A stretch of 33,403 nt of DNA from Gemmatimonadota bacterium (GTDB lineage: Bacteria > Gemmatimonadota > Gemmatimonadetes > Gemmatimonadales > GWC2-71-9). The notes beneath the pieces were generated by a model. That model was not told the DNA's origin and searched no databases. It saw only the letters and a program-made list of their open reading frames with translations. A program made the position numbers and the translations under genes. The DNA lies in NCBI GenBank assembly GCA_003221005.1, contig QHTZ01000061.1, positions 1-33,403 of the forward strand, written 5' to 3'. Of this stretch, positions 5,125-20,976 are shown in pieces; the stretch's first letter is position 1, and each line of letters begins with the position of its first letter.

Positions 5125-5841
5125 GGTCGGACGCCCTTCAGCACAAACGCCCACACTTTGTCCCGGTACACCGTCCCCCCCACGTCGTACGTATCGTTGT
5201 GGCCGGCGCCCGCGATCGCGACGAGCTCCGCTGGTCCGGGCGCGGCAGCGGCGACGCGCCTGCCCATCTCGATCGGCGCCAAGCGGTCGGCGGTGCCGTG
5301 GAACACCAGCACTGGACAGCGGACGCGGCGGATCTCGGTCTCGTTGTCGAGACGGAGGTGCAGCAAGAGGCGGGGGAAGATCCGGTAATGGAGGCGCGCC
5401 ATGTCCCGCGCGCTCGTGAACGGCGATTCGAGGATGAGTCCCGCGACCGGGTGACGCGCCGCCGTGTGGACGGCGACGGCCTTCGCTCCCGCCGTATCCG
5501 GGGTAGTCGACGACCAGCAGCGCGGTCCCCGGGGGCTGGAAGTGCCGCACGACGGGCCAGATCGTCGCGATGTTCTCGCCATTGCCGTAGAACCACAACA
5601 AGCCAGGCGAGGGCGCTGGTGGTCGGTGGAGGACAGTCGGACCTAGGTACCAGCCCGCCAGCTTCGTTCCGTCGGACAGCGCGACTTCGACGCGTTCCCC
5701 GTTCCCCACCCCGAGGGTCCGCGGATCCGGCACGGCGCCACGCGGCGCCGGGAACGCGAGGCGGTCCTGGAGCAGCCAGCCGAGCAACACCAGGACGACG
5801 TACGCCAGAGCGAGCCCCGCGCCGAAACGCACCGCGAGCAT
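5121..5841 (-). pseudogene. Alpha/beta hydrolase (ABHD13/17-like) with internal deletion and frameshift
   Basis: N-half (TM; LLWFYGNGEN; VDYPGYGGSEG) and C-half (AVAV..AGLILESPFTS; PVLVFHGTAD; GAGHND) are in different frames, joined at ~5480. The G-x-S-x-G segment is absent. Confidence 0.85.
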
Positions 5842-13862: not shown

Positions 13863-15253
13863 GCACCGTCCCTCGACGTCTTTCGCAGCTGCGGCAGCTC
13901 CGTCTCCAGCTCGTGCGTCTTGTGGAACGGTACTCGCGGCCCGCGGATGGGGAGGAGGTGCGCGATCGAATTGGCGTAGTACTCGAGCAGCGGCCGTGCG
14001 CGCGGCAGCACGACGACGCTGTCTCCGTCGGATACCACCAGGCGGCGCAGCCGCAGCATGCGCCAGGCGCGGTCCCACACGTCCTCGATGCGGGCGCCCC
14101 CCCGCACGACCTTGGCGTTCACCTCGAGCAGCCGGTCGCGCAGCTGGTCCATGCGCTCGAGCAGGGCAGGGCGGGGGATCATCGTCTGTCCGAACGACAG
14201 CAGGGCCGCCGCCGCGAGCGGGACGGGGGTGACGGGAATGACCGCGCCGATCCGGGTCATGGCTTCCTGGGCAAGGCGTTCGAGCTCGGGGAGGCGCCGC
14301 TCCTTGGGCCACGCCAGCACACCCGGGGGCGCCGTGGCGAGCCAGGCGCGGGCGGAGCGCGGGGTCCCGAAGTTGACCGCCGCGCGGCCGTAGCGCTTGA
14401 GGCGGCCAGTGACGAGCCGCGCGAGGTTGCGCGTGATGTATCCGGTCACGGTGGCGAGCTGCGCGATGCGCCCGGGCCGGCGTCCCTGGTCGACCAGCTC
14501 GCGGATGAGGGAACGGTCTTCCAGCACCCGATCGTAGTTGATGGCGACCGGGACGAGCCAGATGTCGCGGGTGAACGTGGGATCGTTCAGCGTAGTGAGG
14601 ATGTAGTCGAGCAAGCCGAGCTTCGGCGATCGCAGTCGTCCGTCGCGCGTCAGGCCGCCCTCGGGGAAGATTCCCTGGGTCACGCCGTTCCGGGTAATGA
14701 GCCGCACGTAGCGCTCCAGCACGGCGTGATAGAGCGGCTCCCGGAACCGTCGCCGCACGAAGTAGGCGCCGAACGACTTGAACACGTACTCGAGCGGCCA
14801 CGCCCGCGCCCACTCGCCCACTGCGTAGCTCACGTGCACGCCGTACGCCAGGACGTACGCGACCACCACGTAGTCGGCGTTCGAGCGGTGATTGATCAGG
14901 TAGACCACGACGTCCTGCTTGGGGATGCGCTCGAGGGCGGCCTCGTCCTGGTAGTCCACGCTCACCTTGTAGAGCAGGTTGATCAGGAGCTTGGCGAGGT
15001 TGTACCCGATCTGGTAATACGACAGGACGTTGAAGTGCGGGACGATCTCGGCGATATACGCGTCGACCTGGAGTCGCACGCGGTCTTCGGGAAGACCGGT
15101 GGTGCGGGCGTGCGCCGCGATGGCGGCGGTGACCACGGGGTCTTGGAGCAGCGCCGCTCGGACGTGGCCGCGCTGCTGGAGCTGATAGCGGGCGAGGCGC
15201 GTGCGGAATTGGTGGACCGTGCGGAGGGCGCGGCGGCGGAACCACCCTCTCAC
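13859..15253 (-). CDS. PlsB-like glycerol-3-phosphate/lysophospholipid acyltransferase
   Basis: NHRSNAD (HX4D), GAYFVRR, IFPEGGLTRDGRL..PKLG, VPVAINYDRVLE; GTGA overlap with the htpX stop. Confidence 0.88.
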   Translation of the reverse strand: MRGWFRRRALRTVHQFRTRLARYQLQQRGHVRAALLQDPVVTAAIAAHARTTGLPEDRVRLQVDAYIAEIVPHFNVLSYYQIGYNLAKLLINLLYKVSVDYQDEAALERIPKQDVVVYLINHRSNADYVVVAYVLAYGVHVSYAVGEWARAWPLEYVFKSFGAYFVRRRFREPLYHAVLERYVRLITRNGVTQGIFPEGGLTRDGRLRSPKLGLLDYILTTLNDPTFTRDIWLVPVAINYDRVLEDRSLIRELVDQGRRPGRIAQLATVTGYITRNLARLVTGRLKRYGRAAVNFGTPRSARAWLATAPPGVLAWPKERRLPELERLAQEAMTRIGAVIPVTPVPLAAAALLSFGQTMIPRPALLERMDQLRDRLLEVNAKVVRGGARIEDVWDRAWRMLRLRRLVVSDGDSVVVLPRARPLLEYYANSIAHLLPIRGPRVPFHKTHELETELPQLRKTSRDGA

Positions 15254-16278
15254 GAGACGGCGCCTCCCTCCTTTTTTAGCTGGGCGTATCCCATGCCCTT
15301 GAGGATCGCGATGCGCTTGACCATCGGCGGATGGGTCGCGAGCACGTCGGCGACGAACCCTTCGTGCGCGGTGAGGCGGCGGCCGAGGGGGTCTGCGATG
15401 CACATGTGCGCGGCGCCGCCCTTGATGTGCGTGGTGGGCATGTCCGCGGCCTCGATTTTTTGCAGCGCGCTGGCGAGCGCGAGCGGGTTGCGCGTAAACT
15501 GCGCGCCCATGGCGTCCGCGAGGTACTCCCGCTTGCGGCTCACGGCCATGGCCAGGAGCTGCGTGATGATCGGGGCGAGGATCCAGGAGAGGATCCACAC
15601 CACGAGCAGCACCACGACGAGCGGGCCGAGCTCGCCCTTCCTGCCCCCGCCTCCGCGCGAGCCGCCTCCGGAGCTGCGTCCCCAAAAGATGCGGTTCGTG
15701 CCGTCGCGCATCAGCACCACCGCGCCGACCAGCGCCGCGAGCGTGGTCATCAGCCGCACGTCTAGGTTCTTAACGTGGCCCAGCTCATGGCCGATCACTC
15801 CCTGCAATTCGTCCCGGTTGCAGAGATCGAGCAGCCCCTGGGTCACCGCGACGTGAGCGTGCAGCGGATCGGTGCCCGTGGCAAAGGCGTTGGGATCGGC
15901 GTCGGGGACGATCCAGATGCGGGGGCGCGGCACGCCCGCGGCGATGGCCATCTCTTCGACCACGTTCACGAGCTGCCGCTGCTTGTCGTCGCTGGGGTCC
16001 ACGACCTCCTCGGCCCCCGTTGCCCAGAGCACCTTCTCCGAGCCGGTCCGGTAGGCGTACGCGGCGAGGCCGGCGCCCACCGCCAGCATCACGAAGCCGA
16101 ACCACCACACGTGATGCTGGGCCGCCGGGGGGGCGTGGGCCGTGTACAGCGAGTAGATGTAATCGCCGCCGAAGCCGAGCCAGGCGAAGAAGAGCACGAA
16201 CACGACAAGCAGCCAGGTGGTCCGGCGGCGGTTCAGCTCCTGCTGCTGGAACAGGTTGAGGGAGGTCTCGTCGCTCAC
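15250..16278 (-). CDS. htpX: HtpX-like M48 membrane zinc protease
   Basis: NVVEEMAIAAG..P; PNAFATG; ELQGVIGHELGH; SRKREYLAD; THPP..KRI; GTGA overlap with lemA. Confidence 0.92.
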   Translation of the reverse strand: MSDETSLNLFQQQELNRRRTTWLLVVFVLFFAWLGFGGDYIYSLYTAHAPPAAQHHVWWFGFVMLAVGAGLAAYAYRTGSEKVLWATGAEEVVDPSDDKQRQLVNVVEEMAIAAGVPRPRIWIVPDADPNAFATGTDPLHAHVAVTQGLLDLCNRDELQGVIGHELGHVKNLDVRLMTTLAALVGAVVLMRDGTNRIFWGRSSGGGSRGGGGRKGELGPLVVVLLVVWILSWILAPIITQLLAMAVSRKREYLADAMGAQFTRNPLALASALQKIEAADMPTTHIKGGAAHMCIADPLGRRLTAHEGFVADVLATHPPMVKRIAILKGMGYAQLKKEGGAVS

Positions 16279-16859
16279 GTCTTCGGTTTCATCGAGAGAT
16301 CGACCTGCGGCACGCCACGCTCCGCCTTGTCCTCGATCTCCCACAGATCGGCGGGCTGCGCCTTGGCCAGGCCCGCCACGAGCGTCGTCGGGAACTGCTG
16401 TTGCTTCGTGTTGTACTGCGTGGCCGTGTCGTTGTAGAGCTGGCGCGCGAACGCGACCTTGTTCTCCGTCGAGGTGAGCTCTTCCTGCAACTGGCCGATG
16501 TTGCCCGTGGCTTTGAGCTGCGGGTACTGCTCCACCACGACCATGAGCCGTGAGAGCGCGCTCGAGAGGGCGTTCTCGGCCTGGCTGATCTGCTTCACAG
16601 CCTCGGGACCGGCGGCGTTGATCTTCACCGCCTGGTTGCGCGCCTGGATGACGGCCTCCAGCGTGTCCTTCTCGAAGCTCATCGCGCCCCGCACGGCGTT
16701 CACGAGATTGGGGATCAGGTCGTGGCGGCGCTTGAGCTGTACGTCGATCTGCTTGAAGGCGTTCACGGTTTGGTTCTTGAGCGATACGAGGCCGTTGTAG
16801 GCGCCGATCACCCACAGCGTCACGACCACGAGCAGGACCAGCAGTATCGAGGACGCCAT
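16275..16859 (-). CDS. lemA: LemA family protein
   Basis: N-terminal TM; YNGLV; IDVQLKRRHDLIPNLV; EQYPQLKA; LQEELTSTENKVAFARQLYND. Confidence 0.96.
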   Translation of the reverse strand: MASSILLVLLVVVTLWVIGAYNGLVSLKNQTVNAFKQIDVQLKRRHDLIPNLVNAVRGAMSFEKDTLEAVIQARNQAVKINAAGPEAVKQISQAENALSSALSRLMVVVEQYPQLKATGNIGQLQEELTSTENKVAFARQLYNDTATQYNTKQQQFPTTLVAGLAKAQPADLWEIEDKAERGVPQVDLSMKPKT

Positions 16860-16891: not shown

Positions 16892-17530
16892 CTACGCCGG
16901 CGTGTGCGGCAGGAGTTTCGTGATCACCTGCCGGAGCGCCTCGGCGAGACTGGCGTCGCCCGGCCCGACGCGCGCGAGCGGGTGCGCGGCATCGACGTGC
17001 AGCTCGAGGCCGCGTCCCAGCGGAATCCGCCGCCAGGTGCTCGGCTCCCCGGAGTCGCGGACCGCGTCGCGCGCGATCCACGCGGTGAGCGCGCGGCCCG
17101 ATCGCCCGCGCGGCGGGCCTCCCGGGCTGCGCAGCGGCAAACGGTCCGGGGCGGGCAGCGAGGGTCCCAGGACCTGCGCCGCCCGTCGCTCCAGCACGTC
17201 CCCGGTTTGGTCCCGCATCTCCTTCGTGATCTGGGCGAGCGTCGCCCCTTCCATCTGCCGCAGCTTGATGCACAGCAGCTGCAGGAAGTGCCGGTACGAG
17301 TAGGTGGCGGCAGTGCCCCGTCCCTCCGGAGGGCTCACCAGCTCCTTCGTCACGTAGAACCGGATCGTGCGCTCGCTCGGCTGCGCGCGGGCGGCAGCGT
17401 TGATCGGGGTGATGGCGGACGCGTCCAGGATGGCGCCGACGAGGGCGGCGAGGTCGCGCAGGTTCCAGGGGGCGAGGTTGCGGTACTCGCGGAGCACGTG
17501 CAACGGATCCTGCTGGGGAGCCCCGGTCAT
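16892..17530 (-). CDS. MerR-type HTH transcriptional regulator
   Basis: SERTIRFYVTKELVSPPEGRGTAATY..RH.LQL..IK..Q.EG.TLAQI; C-terminal WRRIPLGRGLELHV. Confidence 0.85.
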   Translation of the reverse strand: MTGAPQQDPLHVLREYRNLAPWNLRDLAALVGAILDASAITPINAAARAQPSERTIRFYVTKELVSPPEGRGTAATYSYRHFLQLLCIKLRQMEGATLAQITKEMRDQTGDVLERRAAQVLGPSLPAPDRLPLRSPGGPPRGRSGRALTAWIARDAVRDSGEPSTWRRIPLGRGLELHVDAAHPLARVGPGDASLAEALRQVITKLLPHTPA

Positions 17531-17533
17531 GGC

Positions 17534-17935
17534 TCAGCCGTTGCCCGTTTCCCGCTCCCGCACCCGCCAGACACCTTCGAGCCAGACGGAGATTTCCCGG
17601 AGGTTGAACGGCTTCCGCAGGACGGTGCAGCGGTTCTGGTCTAGCCAGCTGCGCACTTCCTCGGCTTCCGCGTCGCCCGTCATGATGGCGATCCGCCCTT
17701 CCAGCTGCGGCCAGCGGTGCACCATGGCGAGGTAGAGGGCGAGCCCCGACATCGTCGGGAGGTGGATGTCGAGCAGCACCGCATCGGCGCGCTCGGATTC
17801 GAGCAGGGAGTAGGCGGCCTCCGCGCTCCCGGTGCTCAGGATGCGGTACCCCTCGCGCGTGAGCGACCGCTCCAGCACCCGCCGCAGCGGCGCCTCGTCG
17901 TCCACGATCAGGACGGTCCGTGCCCCGGGCGTCAT
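17534..17935 (-). CDS. Single-domain response regulator (receiver only)
   Basis: VLIVDDE; VLLDIHLP.MSG; IMTG; LRKPF; ATGA overlap with the AraC gene. Confidence 0.92.
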   Translation of the reverse strand: MTPGARTVLIVDDEAPLRRVLERSLTREGYRILSTGSAEAAYSLLESERADAVLLDIHLPTMSGLALYLAMVHRWPQLEGRIAIMTGDAEAEEVRSWLDQNRCTVLRKPFNLREISVWLEGVWRVRERETGNG

Positions 17936-18735
17936 GACGCCACGACCGACGCCCGAACTCGTTGCCGCGGAACGAAGCGTCGTACCACGCTGCTCAGCGC
18001 CTCGTCGGGCGTGAGCGAGAGGCGCATTTCTCCCGCGGTCAACCCGAGGTACGCGCGGGCGTGCTGCTGCAGGGTTTTCACCTGAGAGTAGCCGAGGCGT
18101 TGCGACACGTCTTCAACGGTGAACCCTGGGTCCTGGAGCAGGCGGTGGGCATAGAGCACCCGCGCTGCCGCCAGGAAGTGCCGCGGGCTTGGCAGCCCGA
18201 TGCGGGTGAACCAGCGCTCGCAGGTGCGCCGGTCCACGCGCGCGCGCGCCGCGACCTGGCCCACGGTCTGCACCGCCGTCGGGGCCTGCAGCGCCTCTTC
18301 CAGTACCCACCGCAGCTCCTTCGGCAGCGGCGCGAGCGCGCCGGCGAGCTGCTCGAGAAACAGCCGCGAGGCCGTGCGCGCCCCCTCCTGGCCCAGCACC
18401 TCGCGCAGCCGCAACGGGTGGTCGTCGTAGCGCGCGAAAACGACGTGACGGATGCCGCGCTGGCCCAACGTCAGCAACACGGCGGCGGTCTCGGGAGAGA
18501 GGCTCGTGTACAGGATGAGCGGGAGCGACGGAAACAGCACGCGCAGCCGCTCGATCTCCTGAGCGCTGGGCGCTCCGTTCAGGAGCGGGTCCACCACGGC
18601 GAGCTCCACCGGTCGGCCGCGGATCGTGGCGAGCGCTTCGCCCCAGTTGAGCGCGCGCGCCAGGGTGAACCGCGGCGCGGCGGCGCGGCGCAGCTTGTGG
18701 AGCTGGATGTCGGGAACGGCAGCGAGAATCAGCAT
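17932..18735 (-). CDS. AraC-family regulator with receiver-like N-terminal domain
   Basis: C-terminal double HTH (TVGQVAARARVDRRTCERWF..IGLPSP...; TVEDVSQRLGYS....LQQH). N-terminal LAVVDP...FPSLPLILYT resembles REC but lacks the beta1 acidic pair. Confidence 0.88.
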   Translation of the reverse strand: MLILAAVPDIQLHKLRRAAAPRFTLARALNWGEALATIRGRPVELAVVDPLLNGAPSAQEIERLRVLFPSLPLILYTSLSPETAAVLLTLGQRGIRHVVFARYDDHPLRLREVLGQEGARTASRLFLEQLAGALAPLPKELRWVLEEALQAPTAVQTVGQVAARARVDRRTCERWFTRIGLPSPRHFLAAARVLYAHRLLQDPGFTVEDVSQRLGYSQVKTLQQHARAYLGLTAGEMRLSLTPDEALSSVVRRFVPRQRVRASVVAS

Positions 18736-18737
18736 AG

Positions 18738-18775
18738 TGTCGCAAAAGCGCCCTTCAATGCCGCAAAAACACCCT
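18738..18775 (+). promoter_or_regulatory. Putative AraC-type tandem binding site
   Basis: TGTCGCAAAAGCGCCCT (18738-18754) and TGCCGCAAAAACACCCT (18759-18775): 14/17 identical, 4-bp spacer. Confidence 0.65.
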
Positions 18776-18855
18776 AAAAAAGGCTCTCCCGGCCGACCAA
18801 GTTGGAGCGAGACGTGCGCACACTCACCCTTCAAAACTGGTTCAGGGAGGCTCCC

Positions 18856-18993
18856 ATGTCCCGCAAGCTTCGCGTCCTCGTCGCTCTGCTCCTCGTTTCG
18901 CTCGCGTACACCGCCGCTGCGTGTGCCGACGCCGCCGGCCCGCAGGTTCCCCACGTCAACGCCTGCGACACGAACGGCTCCGACGTCTGCTGA
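18856..18993 (+). CDS. 45-aa secreted/lipo-peptide ending in CDTNGSDVC
   Basis: GGAGG RBS 5 nt before the ATG; basic N-region, hydrophobic core, AAAC lipobox-like site; GC3-rich codons. Confidence 0.8.
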   Translation: MSRKLRVLVALLLVSLAYTAAACADAAGPQVPHVNACDTNGSDVC

Positions 18994-19137
18994 GGTCGCC
19001 CTGACCGGCTAGGCAGCCTCACTCGCGAGGTGCGTCCGAGAGTGCGAACACCCTCTCGCGGCGCCCTCGCTCCGCAGCACCGACTCCGCGTCTGCCGGGG
19101 GCTCGTGACGGGCGCCCCGGCGGCCGCGAGTCTTGTA

Positions 19138-20349
19138 CTAAGCGGGCTCCGCAACTAATTGCGCGAGCGACGCTGAGACTTCCCGCACGGCGTCGAGTCC
19201 CTTCATGATCCGCTCGATCTTGAACACGAACGCGTGAAGGCCAGCGCCCTCGGCGATCGTGAGCGCCCGGCGGAGCGAGGCCTCTCCACGCCGGAATCGC
19301 CCAAAGCGCGCCTCTCCGATGCCGGCTTTCAGATAGTAGTCGGCCAGTATGTTCGGTGGCATCGTCCGCTCGCGCTTGTGACAGCGAGCACGCATGCGCT
19401 CAAACCCAACCTGGTCGCGCCGATACGAAGCGCAGTGCATCAATTCGATCATCGCGTTGGTGACAGGGCCCTGGGTCGTCGCCCGGCGGATTACTTCGTT
19501 TAGCGCGCGTTCCGCTGCGACGGCGTCCCCGAGCGTCAGCAGCATCACGCCGACGTCACCTAGGGCGCGTAGCCGCGCTTCGGCGTCTTCGAATAGCTCG
19601 AACGCTCGCCAGGCGTGCCGCAAGGCCATGTCTGGTGAGCCGCGGTGCTGCAACACGGCGGCGAGGTTGTGCTCGGCGTGCGCCTCGACTGCGCGCTCGC
19701 CGGCTTTCCGTGCGTCCCCGAGCAGCTCCACGAGACGCTGCTCCGCCTCCGGGAAGTTGCCGCGTCCCTGCACCGTGACCGCCCGGCCGATTCGGCTGAG
19801 CAGCTCAGAGTGGCGGTCCCCTACTACCTTTGCCCGCTCCTCCGCCTCTGCATACGCCGCGTCCGCCTCGTCGAACCGGTTCAGCTTGCGGTTCACGCGG
19901 CCGGCGCGGAGCGACAACGCCACCGCGTCGGCCCCCGAAGCGCGTCCGCCAGCAACGCGCCGCAGCGTGTCCAGCGCATCAAGCGCCTCTTCCAGGTGGA
20001 GCGCGTCTTCCAGGAAATGCGCGTACGCGAACAAGCCGGGGGTGAGGAGGCGGATGTCGCTCTGGCGGTGTGCGGCCGCCGCGCTCGCGACGAGGCCATG
20101 CAGATGACCCCCTTCCGTCGCGATCCCTCGCAGGTCGCGGCAGAAGCGATCCGTGGCGGCCCACTGATACTCGAAGGCATCGGGGGGCACCGGATCGCGT
20201 GCGGGCTCGAGCAAGTCGATGAGCCGCAACGCGAGAAACGCCCCTTGCCCGAGCCGCGACTCCCGCCGCTTGCTTCCCTCGGGCTCGGAGATGCGGTGCA
20301 GAAAGACGGCGTGGGGTAGTACCGACAGTTCAGCGCGCGCGATGGACAT
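19138..20349 (-). CDS. TPR-repeat protein without an obvious enzymatic domain
   Basis: GAGGAG RBS; repeated TPR-like helices (AGRVNRKLNRFDEADAAYAEA; GRGNFPEAEQRL; HNLAAVLQHRG; GDVGVMLLTLGDAVAAERAL); no signal peptide. Confidence 0.82.
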   Translation of the reverse strand: MSIARAELSVLPHAVFLHRISEPEGSKRRESRLGQGAFLALRLIDLLEPARDPVPPDAFEYQWAATDRFCRDLRGIATEGGHLHGLVASAAAAHRQSDIRLLTPGLFAYAHFLEDALHLEEALDALDTLRRVAGGRASGADAVALSLRAGRVNRKLNRFDEADAAYAEAEERAKVVGDRHSELLSRIGRAVTVQGRGNFPEAEQRLVELLGDARKAGERAVEAHAEHNLAAVLQHRGSPDMALRHAWRAFELFEDAEARLRALGDVGVMLLTLGDAVAAERALNEVIRRATTQGPVTNAMIELMHCASYRRDQVGFERMRARCHKRERTMPPNILADYYLKAGIGEARFGRFRRGEASLRRALTIAEGAGLHAFVFKIERIMKGLDAVREVSASLAQLVAEPA

Positions 20350-20547
20350 CGCCCAGAGCTCTCCTCAAGGTCAGCGACGGCAACCGGCCCCCCAAGTGCA
20401 GCCACCGTGCCGAATGTCCAAGCCGCTAACGGCACACAACATAGCGCTTTCCGTCTAGGCGCGTTAGACCGCATTCTCCGCGGTTTCTTGCCTTTCGCCG
20501 CGTGATTCCGGTGCCGCGGGTCCCGGGGAGAGCGCCTAATTGGCCCC

Positions 20548-20976
20548 ATGCAACGGGGCTATACGGTCGTGGAGTTGGTTGTGGCGCTGGCCATCGTCGC
20601 CCTCGTGACGGCCGTCACACTCCCCAGTTTTGGCGACCTGTTGGATCGGATCGCAGTGGAGCGGGCGGCGTCTGAAATGACCGCCGCCTTCGCAGTGGCT
20701 CGGAACCGCGCGGTGCTGCGGGCGACCCGGGCACGCCTATCCATTGCCGCCGACTCTCTCCGTTTGGACGAAGGGGGGGACCGCGCCTGGGTCTCGGCGA
20801 CCCGCTGGCCGGGGCCGGACCAGCATCGGGTGACGCTCACCGTGTCTAACCCCGTCGTGACCTTCGACCCCAGGGGACTCGGCTGGGGGCTTGCCAACAC
20901 ACGGGTTGTGTTGTCACGAGGGTCGCAATCCGCAACGATCACGATGTCGCGCGTGGGGCGGGTGAAACGGTGGTAA
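20548..20976 (+). CDS. Prepilin-type N-methylation domain protein (FimT/GspH-like minor pilin)
   Basis: MQRG|YTVVELVVALAIVALV class III signal; AR.RAV; VTFDPRG; ITMSRVGRV. Confidence 0.88.
   Translation: MQRGYTVVELVVALAIVALVTAVTLPSFGDLLDRIAVERAASEMTAAFAVARNRAVLRATRARLSIAADSLRLDEGGDRAWVSATRWPGPDQHRVTLTVSNPVVTFDPRGLGWGLANTRVVLSRGSQSATITMSRVGRVKRW

Follow-up and report, generated by a model that had tools for sequence, protein, structure and literature searches.

A 33,403-nt contig of a Gemmatimonadota bacterium (QHTZ01000061.1, assembly GCA_003221005.1; the whole of it is hereafter called the window) carries adjacent genes for a tetratricopeptide repeat (TPR) protein, a small prepeptide, an AraC-type regulator with a receiver-fold (REC) N-terminal domain and a single-domain response regulator (RR). 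We propose, at a probability of about one half, that this four-gene cassette is a peptide-sensing system of the Rap-Phr kind in a diderm phylum. The proposal draws on comparative sequence analysis and structure prediction, and in particular on the parallel divergence of the TPR protein and the C-terminal residues of the prepeptide. The window is contig C50 of the 2.79-Mb metagenome-assembled genome (MAG) of a soil Gemmatimonadales, 94% complete; in what follows, L-numbers denote related loci, f-numbers families in the sampled genomes and G000 the window's own genome. Related public contigs are labelled Gemmatimonadales or Gemmatimonadota and come mostly from soil, and at least half of the words sampled from this stretch are present in 18 DNA runs of 16 soil-metagenome studies.

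The prepeptide and the conserved gene unit

The prepeptide gene (18856-18993, plus strand, 45 codons), identified from its translation, its conservation and RNA-library contigs, encodes MSRKLRVLVALLLVSLAYTAAACADAAGPQVPHVNACDTNGSDVC and is single-copy in G000. It is divergent from the AraC gene (17932-18735, minus strand) and convergent with the TPR gene (19138-20349, minus strand). An earlier note on this DNA had described the same arrangement, namely a 45-residue open reading frame (ORF) with a strong ribosome-binding site, a leader, a linker and a terminal C-x7-C, a divergent AraC regulator with a receiver-like N-domain, and a convergent, cytoplasmic TPR-only protein. All the features of the ORF are found in the sequence; the description of the regulator agrees with its sequence, its AlphaFold2 (AF2) model and a Foldseek search, and that of the TPR protein with a TPR_12 match, an all-helical model and the lack of a hydrophobic leader.

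A Shine-Dalgarno sequence, GGGAGG (18845-18850, plus strand), lies 5 nt before the ATG of the prepeptide, and its GGAGG is conserved in the intergenic alignment (consensus digits 9). The GC content of the small ORF by codon position, 0.71/0.53/0.84, is coding-like (that of the window is 69%). Residues 1-22 of the window prepeptide form the leader and are followed by a lipobox-type Cys (C23), a tether (ADAAGP, residues 24-29), a linker (residues 30-36) and the core C-DTNGSDV-C (residues 37-45; 18964-18990, plus strand), a candidate ligand in view of its variability, its repetition in relatives and its covariation with the TPR protein. Throughout the family the layout is an n-region, a hydrophobic core, small-x-Ala-Cys, a tether (Cys-Ala-Asp-Ala-Thr-Gly-Pro or Cys-x-Ser-Pro-Thr-Ala-Pro), a linker of 2-30 residues and the C-terminal core.

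Among 40 aligned peptides, M1 and Cys23 are invariant, and R6, A22 and P29 each occur in at least 90%. Leader position -3 is mostly A, S or T and not L, and the resulting Ala-x-Ala-Cys would fit signal peptidase I too; nevertheless, members that lack all other Cys residues (L014, L016, L017 and L154) still retain the one at +1, a fact that favours a lipoprotein-type signal. A search for families in Pfam and NCBIfam gave no match to the prepeptide, and a profile search over 5.8 billion proteins returned 69 matches, all unnamed or labelled 'hypothetical protein'. Weak matches to small-lipoprotein families were obtained as well (YgdI/YgdR in 9 of the 40 peptides, best E 0.058). A regular-expression screen of the genome for lipoproteins was noisy, giving 82 candidates of which many are out of frame; the start Cys-x-Asp-x-x-Gly-Pro is shared by at least one other candidate lipoprotein of the window genome.

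The mode of evolution of the peptide can be read in a clade of 19 members of 41 residues each. Here 29 of the 41 residues are invariant, 21 of these 29 being written with two or more synonymous codons, and the amino-acid changes are concentrated at core position 2 (T/Y/V/I), core position 3 (N/Q/S) and the last residue (H/K/R). The pattern is that of purifying selection on leader and tether, with change concentrated in the core. In view of its conservation, its synonymous variation and its ribosome-binding site, we reject the possibility that the small ORF is not a gene.

Within the window's genus the core conforms to Cys-Asp-x-x-(Asn/Gly)-Ser-(Asn/Asp)-(Thr/Val)-Cys, and in other lineages it ends in Gly-Ser-Gly-Thr/Asn, Gly-Ser-Asp-x-Cys or Ile-Gly-Pro-His. 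Some relatives carry the core in tandem, with the last copy forming the exact C-terminus: two copies are found in L012, L079 and L086, three in L131/L013, three of a 7-mer in L154, and as many as six of one 8-mer in L134. Since these repeats extend up to the exact C-terminus, they suggest that the functional unit of the prepeptide is made up of its last 7-8 residues. Several members have no loop Cys, or a last core copy free of Cys; the Cys pair is thus not essential, and the Cys-loop signal suggested earlier for this locus does not hold as a trait of the family.

A match to the TPR protein was obtained in 26 of 41 relatives. A profile search (E <= 1e-15) detected its family in 132 of the 301 genomes that were drawn from the whole phylum, a single genome having as many as five copies (f1, 71/124; f2, 52/70; f4, 3/6; f7, 3/47; f6, 0/23; f10, 0/13). 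In all of the first 20 loci the AraC and TPR genes are neighbours and enclose a small ORF in the same orientation, with a GGAGG-type site and a Lys/Arg-hydrophobic-Cys leader. From 297 relatives, 80 public loci were then retrieved with an AraC alignment; nine of them have no upstream DNA, and among the 71 scored the peptide ORF is intact in 69, 68 of which are canonical while L038 uses an upstream GTG start. Further loci reached through genomes contain the peptide ORF in 29/29 and 16/20 cases, counts that are not independent because many of these loci come from genomes already represented by the public contigs; L142, L143, L145 and L148 yielded no peptide, L143 containing a TPR fragment and L148 running to the end of its contig. 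Recurrence on this scale is well beyond what chance would give. The adjacency of AraC, peptide and TPR genes holds across two Gemmatimonadales families and in some further families of the same class. A search of viral contigs gave 168 pattern matches, none of them a relative of the AraC protein.

Two types of locus can be distinguished. Type A loci lie in an extended block of synteny, with the order acyltransferase-like, M48, LemA, MerR-like, RR, AraC, peptide, TPR, GspH-like, epimerase and RR-HD-GYP. Type B loci (about 15 of the 80) have different neighbours and only RR, AraC, peptide and TPR genes in common, so that these four genes form the unit that is duplicated. An RR homologue is present in 74 of the 80 loci, of both types, and the single-domain RR belongs to the module. 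Where one MAG holds two modules, the 7-residue cores differ at 2-5 positions in 10 of 11 cases; the exception is L046/L048 (both of type A, possibly two strains in one bin), whose cores agree fully, the last residue alone being different. In f2 genomes with 3-5 TPR paralogues, most copies adjoin an AraC gene and a distinct peptide.

The composition of the unit bears on one further interpretation. A short precursor whose core is variable, sometimes repeated and rich in Gly, Ser, Thr and Asn, with Cys pairs in many members, could also be that of a ribosomally synthesized and post-translationally modified peptide (RiPP) or a bacteriocin-like product, the TPR protein serving as recognition or immunity factor. 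We judge this very improbable: the leader is a Sec/lipoprotein-type signal and not a RiPP leader, and the conserved module, reduced to RR, AraC, peptide and TPR genes in type B, includes no modification enzyme, transporter or protease.

The TPR protein and its covariation with the core

The candidate peptide receptor is a 403-residue protein matching TPR_12 (E 4.3e-13). Its AF2 model (predicted local distance difference test score, pLDDT, 93.2) shows a solenoid built wholly of helices, 20 in number, that form about nine repeats, and inspection of the translation reveals no hydrophobic leader in the first 30 residues. In a structural search against the PDB (VIA), Rap structures were matched with Z 22-23.8 over model residues 30-372, including RappLS20-Phr* (Z 23.8) and RapH-Spo0F (Z 23.3) with 326-329 residues aligned, NprR with Z 22.8, and LGN with Z 24.5 over 293 residues (model residues 89-393); Rap or NprR account for 12 of the best 30 structural entries. 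By sequence, no convincing homology beyond the generic TPR_12 match places the protein among the RRNPPA receptors.

Public metagenomes contain no fewer than 1,122 protein clusters of the family, under the labels 'hypothetical protein' or 'tetratricopeptide repeat protein'; in the public sources searched, the peptide and TPR families alike bear no functional name. The nearest TPR clusters beyond Gemmatimonadota, as judged from their language-model features (0.94), carry the labels Bacteroidota and Ignavibacteriota.

Conservation of the TPR protein is highest in the N-terminal stretch 11-62 and at 299-350, and the central repeats are more variable. In the 57 loci with a C-x7-C core the protein diverges 1.7 times faster than the AraC regulator (mean distance 0.425 vs. 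0.249), and in close kin, with AraC proteins 1-5% apart, the TPR proteins differ by 7-16%. We compared this divergence with that of the core by partial Mantel tests on 55 loci (the 57 minus two duplicates). Given the AraC distances, TPR and core distances are correlated (n = 55, r 0.26, p 0.001), while no correlation with the core is found for the RR (n = 51, r 0.004, p 0.49) or for the GspH-like protein encoded on the other side of the TPR gene (n = 39, r -0.10, p 0.79). The correlation of TPR and core also persists when the GspH-like protein takes the place of AraC as the control (n = 39, r 0.50, p 0.0005). TPR divergence therefore tracks core divergence beyond what AraC accounts for, and that of the RR and the GspH-like protein does not.

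The association can be traced to individual residues. When 293 variable TPR columns and 119 AraC columns were scanned against single core positions by normalised mutual information (MI), TPR column 228 reached 0.78 with core position 4 (best AraC column, 0.40) and column 264 reached 0.71 with core position 3 (best AraC column, 0.53); for core position 2, columns 288, 235, 227 and 234 gave 0.62-0.72 (best AraC column, 0.59). The 95th percentiles among TPR columns in the scan giving 0.71-0.78 are 0.37-0.42. A core with Asn at position 4 is accompanied by Gly228 in 36 of 38 loci, and a core with Gly there by Asp, Glu, Asn, Ser or Ala, as in the window, which combines Gly at core position 4 with Asn228. 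Similarly, 24 of the 25 loci with Asn at core position 3 have Gly264, which is never found otherwise; with Gln or Ser at that position, column 264 holds Asn, Ser and others.

Mapped on the AraC tree, core position 3 and column 264 undergo 19 and 18 state changes, and of 9 independent pairs about 8.8 run in the same direction and 0 in the opposite one (p 0.004). For core position 4 and column 228 there are 11 and 10 state changes and 6 independent pairs, about 4.5 of them concordant and 0 discordant (p 0.06-0.125). Residues 228 and 264 occupy equivalent positions of the TPR helices 219-235 and 256-272, and would therefore be neighbours on one face of the solenoid. The two comparisons proposed in the earlier note, gene co-occurrence and co-diversification, have thus given an AraC-peptide-TPR unit that stays adjacent (20/20 and 69/71 loci) and whose paralogues carry their own peptide, together with a partial Mantel r of 0.26 and position-specific covariation. 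A predicted complex of the TPR alignment with peptide residues 16-45 scored 0.02 against a mark of 0.32, a prediction run without controls that weighs neither way.

The regulator, its candidate operator and the proposed circuit

The AraC/XylS-type regulator starts at the ATG at 18735 and has 267 residues, as against 340 for the maximal ORF. Its C-terminal part is a double helix-turn-helix (HTH) domain (HTH_18, E 6.9e-13, 49.1 bits vs. a cut-off of 33.6) that resembles the DNA-binding domain of AdpA both by profile (E 5.9e-16) and by Foldseek (TMt 0.78, root-mean-square deviation, rmsd, 2.3). In the AF2 model (pLDDT 87.8) the N-domain, approximately residues 1-120, adopts a (beta-alpha)5 fold with helices after it, the elements being E2-6, H9-19, E24-27, H31-40, E43-48, H59-67, E73-77, H81-92, E98-100 and H107-119. 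Foldseek matched full-length FixJ (E 3e-5), Spo0F (TMt 0.79, rmsd 2.7) and the NtrX receiver (TMt 0.80). The Asp of beta3 (D49) is invariant in 18 of 18 homologues. In the same 18-sequence alignment no acidic pair is conserved after beta1, the beta4 residue is unconserved and beta5 is followed by DD-H-P with no Lys; with the beta1 acidic pair and the beta5 Lys missing, the domain is best taken as an atypical receiver. On the other hand, the neighbouring RR (17534-17935, minus strand, 133 residues; Response_reg, E 1.3e-19) possesses all canonical receiver residues (DD, D, T and K motifs in its translation), and the start of its gene overlaps the AraC stop codon (ATGA). Two more REC-AraC paralogues are found in G000, at C100:19850-20557 (33% identity) and C38:47441-48046 (29%); the window genome contains no strong TPR paralogue for them.

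Between the AraC and peptide genes lies a tandem direct repeat (18738-18755 and 18759-18776, plus strand) of the form TG(T/C)CGCAAAA-N-CGCCCT(A), with a 21-bp period and pointing towards the peptide gene. It is the most conserved part of 66 aligned AraC-peptide spacers and a candidate operator for the AraC-type protein of the cassette. As with MarA-type sites, the layout would suit one AraC-type double-HTH domain per repeat. The 18-nt word TGCCGCAAAAAC(G/A)CCCTA occurs at seven other places in the 2.79-Mb genome (G000 C11:7767, C38:28359, C40:25093, C81:1420, C112:11459, C126:1562 and C131:6666), again in tandem on C112. Every one of these copies faces an ORF from a distance of 50-135 nt upstream; among the encoded products are a REC-only protein, a 648-residue REC-containing protein, a TonB-receptor-like protein and a 146-residue protein. 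The recurrent word is a candidate for a regulon or for a shared promoter element. A promoter and terminator scan of 18600-20700 gave no sigma-70-like site and nothing above shuffled sequences, and hairpins after the peptide stop are not better than shuffles (z -1.34).

Taken together with the co-diversification, these features suggest the following circuit. The prepeptide would be exported by Sec through its lipoprotein-type leader, as its anatomy and the invariant +1 Cys lead us to infer, and proteolysis would free the C-terminal core of 7-8 residues, which is single and Cys-flanked in the window and in tandem in some relatives. The core would then return to the cytoplasm and bind the central TPR repeats, for which co-diversification and residue covariation speak. 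The conserved N-terminal part of the TPR protein may hold or modify either the receiver-fold domain of the AraC protein or the co-transcribed RR; a preference for the AraC factor over the RR, as in the earlier note, is an inference. Binding of the peptide would alter the hold of the TPR protein on its target. Finally, the AraC protein would bind the 21-bp-spaced repeat between its own gene and the peptide gene, with feedback on peptide production and possibly control of other sites bearing the same word. Two Opp/Dpp-type (SBP_bac_5) binding proteins are encoded in the window genome, which speaks for a capacity for re-import only.

Several observations weigh against this circuit. In a profile search against the PDB, the TPR protein is closer to LGN (E 1e-11) than to RapJ (E 0.004, marginal), and the structural scores of LGN and Rap are tied, although the Rap matches cover more of the N-terminus. 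With respect to the coupling, the TPR distance in 17 independent sister pairs is 0.173 when the cores differ (n = 12) and 0.123 when they are equal (n = 5), with p 0.08; the covarying columns were picked post hoc from 293, the loci used include kin, which do not count as independent, and the associations could be inflated if the neighbouring peptide and TPR genes are transferred together. Two of the 71 scored loci retain the TPR and AraC genes with the peptide disrupted: L068 has a stop right after the tether, and in L062 the peptide is deleted, leaving a TPR-AraC gap of about 80 nt. These two may be 'eavesdropper' or decaying cassettes. As to the route of the peptide, a product with a lipoprotein-type leader may stay lipid-anchored, its release needs some protease, and the diderm envelope is to be crossed twice; no kinase, transporter or protease gene is found in the conserved module. 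Expression of the small ORF as a short transcript has a weak hint in two RNA-library contigs (18751-19066 and 18823-19080) that span it entirely with 0 mismatches. They come from two metatranscriptome runs of one study, and strand, ends and DNA carry-over cannot be judged from contigs. In the 2.9-kb stretch the same runs yielded otherwise only 206 nt inside the AraC gene and 151 nt inside the TPR gene, and the uncovered parts carry no information.

Part of these data would be compatible with another arrangement, in which the peptide is an ordinary small envelope lipoprotein with a function of its own (envelope, surface or metal binding), regulated as the divergent target of the REC-AraC protein, the TPR protein acts as a co-regulator that makes no contact with it, and the covariation reflects linkage or co-transfer. 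Such an arrangement would agree with the invariant lipobox Cys and the lipoprotein-like tether, the weak YgdI/YgdR matches, the conserved candidate operator adjoining the gene, the two loci that keep TPR and AraC genes with the peptide lost or truncated, and the modest p of the sister-pair test. We nonetheless hold it unlikely. The GspH-like gene is just as closely linked to the TPR gene and also fast-evolving, yet its product is unassociated with the core; the covariation is position-specific (MI 0.71-0.78 vs. AraC maxima of 0.40-0.53) and chemically complementary, with N opposite G; and repeated cores at the exact C-terminus are unexpected in a structural lipoprotein.

This lipoprotein interpretation and a switch of partners before export are the main rivals of the Rap-Phr-like circuit. 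In the latter case the TPR protein would bind the C-terminus of the unexported prepeptide and, once freed by its export, act on the REC-AraC protein or the RR. A precedent is offered by type III secretion, in which the AraC-type activators InvF and MxiE have TPR chaperones, SicA and IpgC, as co-activators, and by the ExsA-ExsD-ExsC-ExsE cascade. The cast is the same, an AraC regulator, a TPR protein that switches partners and a small exported product encoded together; the TPR-core covariation would be explained with no re-import over two membranes, and the lipoprotein-type leader speaks against a freely diffusing product. Yet the present TPR protein, with 403 residues, about nine repeats and a Rap-like shape, differs from a class II chaperone of about 165 residues and three repeats, and the exported product has a Sec/lipoprotein leader. 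The conserved neighbours are RR, MerR-like, LemA, M48 and GspH-like genes, and no type III secretion protein was found among the 6 window ORFs scanned against Pfam. Dedicated TPR chaperones are not known for Sec substrates. Moreover, fast diversification of the core, distinct cores in paralogues and two to six tandem copies are typical of signal-receptor specificity and would not be needed by an export sensor. We therefore regard a partner switch before export as quite unlikely.

Relation to known peptide systems and flanking genes

Returning to the Rap-Phr-like reading, the cassette shares with Rap-Phr systems a TPR-only cytoplasmic protein of approximately 380-420 residues, here the candidate receptor, in which an N-terminal helical part precedes the repeats, an adjacent small ORF with a Sec leader and a few variable residues at its C-terminus, and the occurrence of several paralogous cassettes per genome with different peptides. 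Receiver-domain partners are a further likeness, the Rap targets recorded in PDB entries 3q15 and 3ulq being Spo0F and ComA. The differences are also clear: the cassette resides in diderm Gemmatimonadota; its peptide gene converges on the TPR gene and is transcribed away from that of the regulator, whereas in Rap-Phr it lies downstream within a single operon; the output would be provided by a REC-AraC protein that the cassette itself encodes; and all members have a lipobox-type leader and many have cores flanked by a Cys pair. Tandem core copies are reported for some RRNPPA/Rap-Phr propeptides (PMC11343458; PMC9765709), and lipobox-containing substrates of signal peptidase II are predicted for 211 of 2,734 RRNPPA propeptides in PMC9765709.

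AimR-AimP, PlcR-PapR and NprR-NprX are similar in pairing a cytoplasmic TPR sensor with a neighbouring propeptide that is exported and owes its specificity to the 5-8 residues of its mature C-terminus, and in a core with a conserved C-terminal part and variable N-terminal residues. In these systems the HTH is fused N-terminally to the sensor, whereas here DNA binding would be assigned to a separate AraC-type protein. The earlier note had put forward a Gram-negative analogue of the RRNPP systems: the conserved peptide-TPR-AraC unit, the co-diversification and the C-terminal core are in line with this idea, while membership in RRNPPA at the sequence level did not emerge.

As described in PMC9765709, PMC10075063 and PMC11343458, RRNPPA systems belong to Bacillota and their mobile elements, and PMC10075063 gives small molecules as the typical signals of Pseudomonadota and Actinomycetota. 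Our literature searches, at the level of search listings, returned no such system in Gemmatimonadota or other diderms. We tentatively suggest, with somewhat less confidence than in the circuit itself, that Gemmatimonadota possess a peptide pheromone system with a Rap-like cytoplasmic TPR receptor, pherotype-like diversification, multi-copy propeptides and orthogonal cassettes.

If this is true, it would be the first case of RRNPP-type quorum sensing beyond Gram-positive bacteria, and signalling of this kind would extend peptide communication to a soil phylum that is diderm, abundant and little represented in culture. How the peptide leaves a lipoprotein-type precursor and crosses two membranes would then become a question, and the cassettes would supply natural orthogonal peptide-receptor pairs with readable specificity residues. 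The TPR family could also provide a remote outgroup for rooting RRNPPA, a remote relative being named in PMC12700828 as a help for finding the root of that tree.

The genes flanking the module in the window are the following. Divergent from the TPR gene lies an orphan gene for a GspH/FimT-like pseudopilin (20548-20976, plus strand; GspH, E 1.7e-6; N_methyl, E 2.7e-5), which is present in 41 of the 80 related loci, all of type A, with no other pilus gene adjoining; the protein has a conserved C-terminal Ser-Arg-x-Gly-Arg-x-Lys-Arg-Trp. On the RR side are a MerR-like gene (16892-17530, minus strand; MerR_1, E 6.6e-8), a LemA-like gene (16275-16859, minus strand) and an M48-type gene (15250-16200, minus strand), the labels of the last two being read from the translations. 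Their homologues are syntenic in 56-62 of the 80 loci and absent from type B, and the three genes are therefore probably outside the module. In type B loci the RR is followed by a conserved 160-residue ORF (L082, L088, L091, L096, L100 and L105, at about 5200-5700) and in some of them by a 208-residue lipoprotein-like ORF too, at the place where type A has the MerR-like gene.

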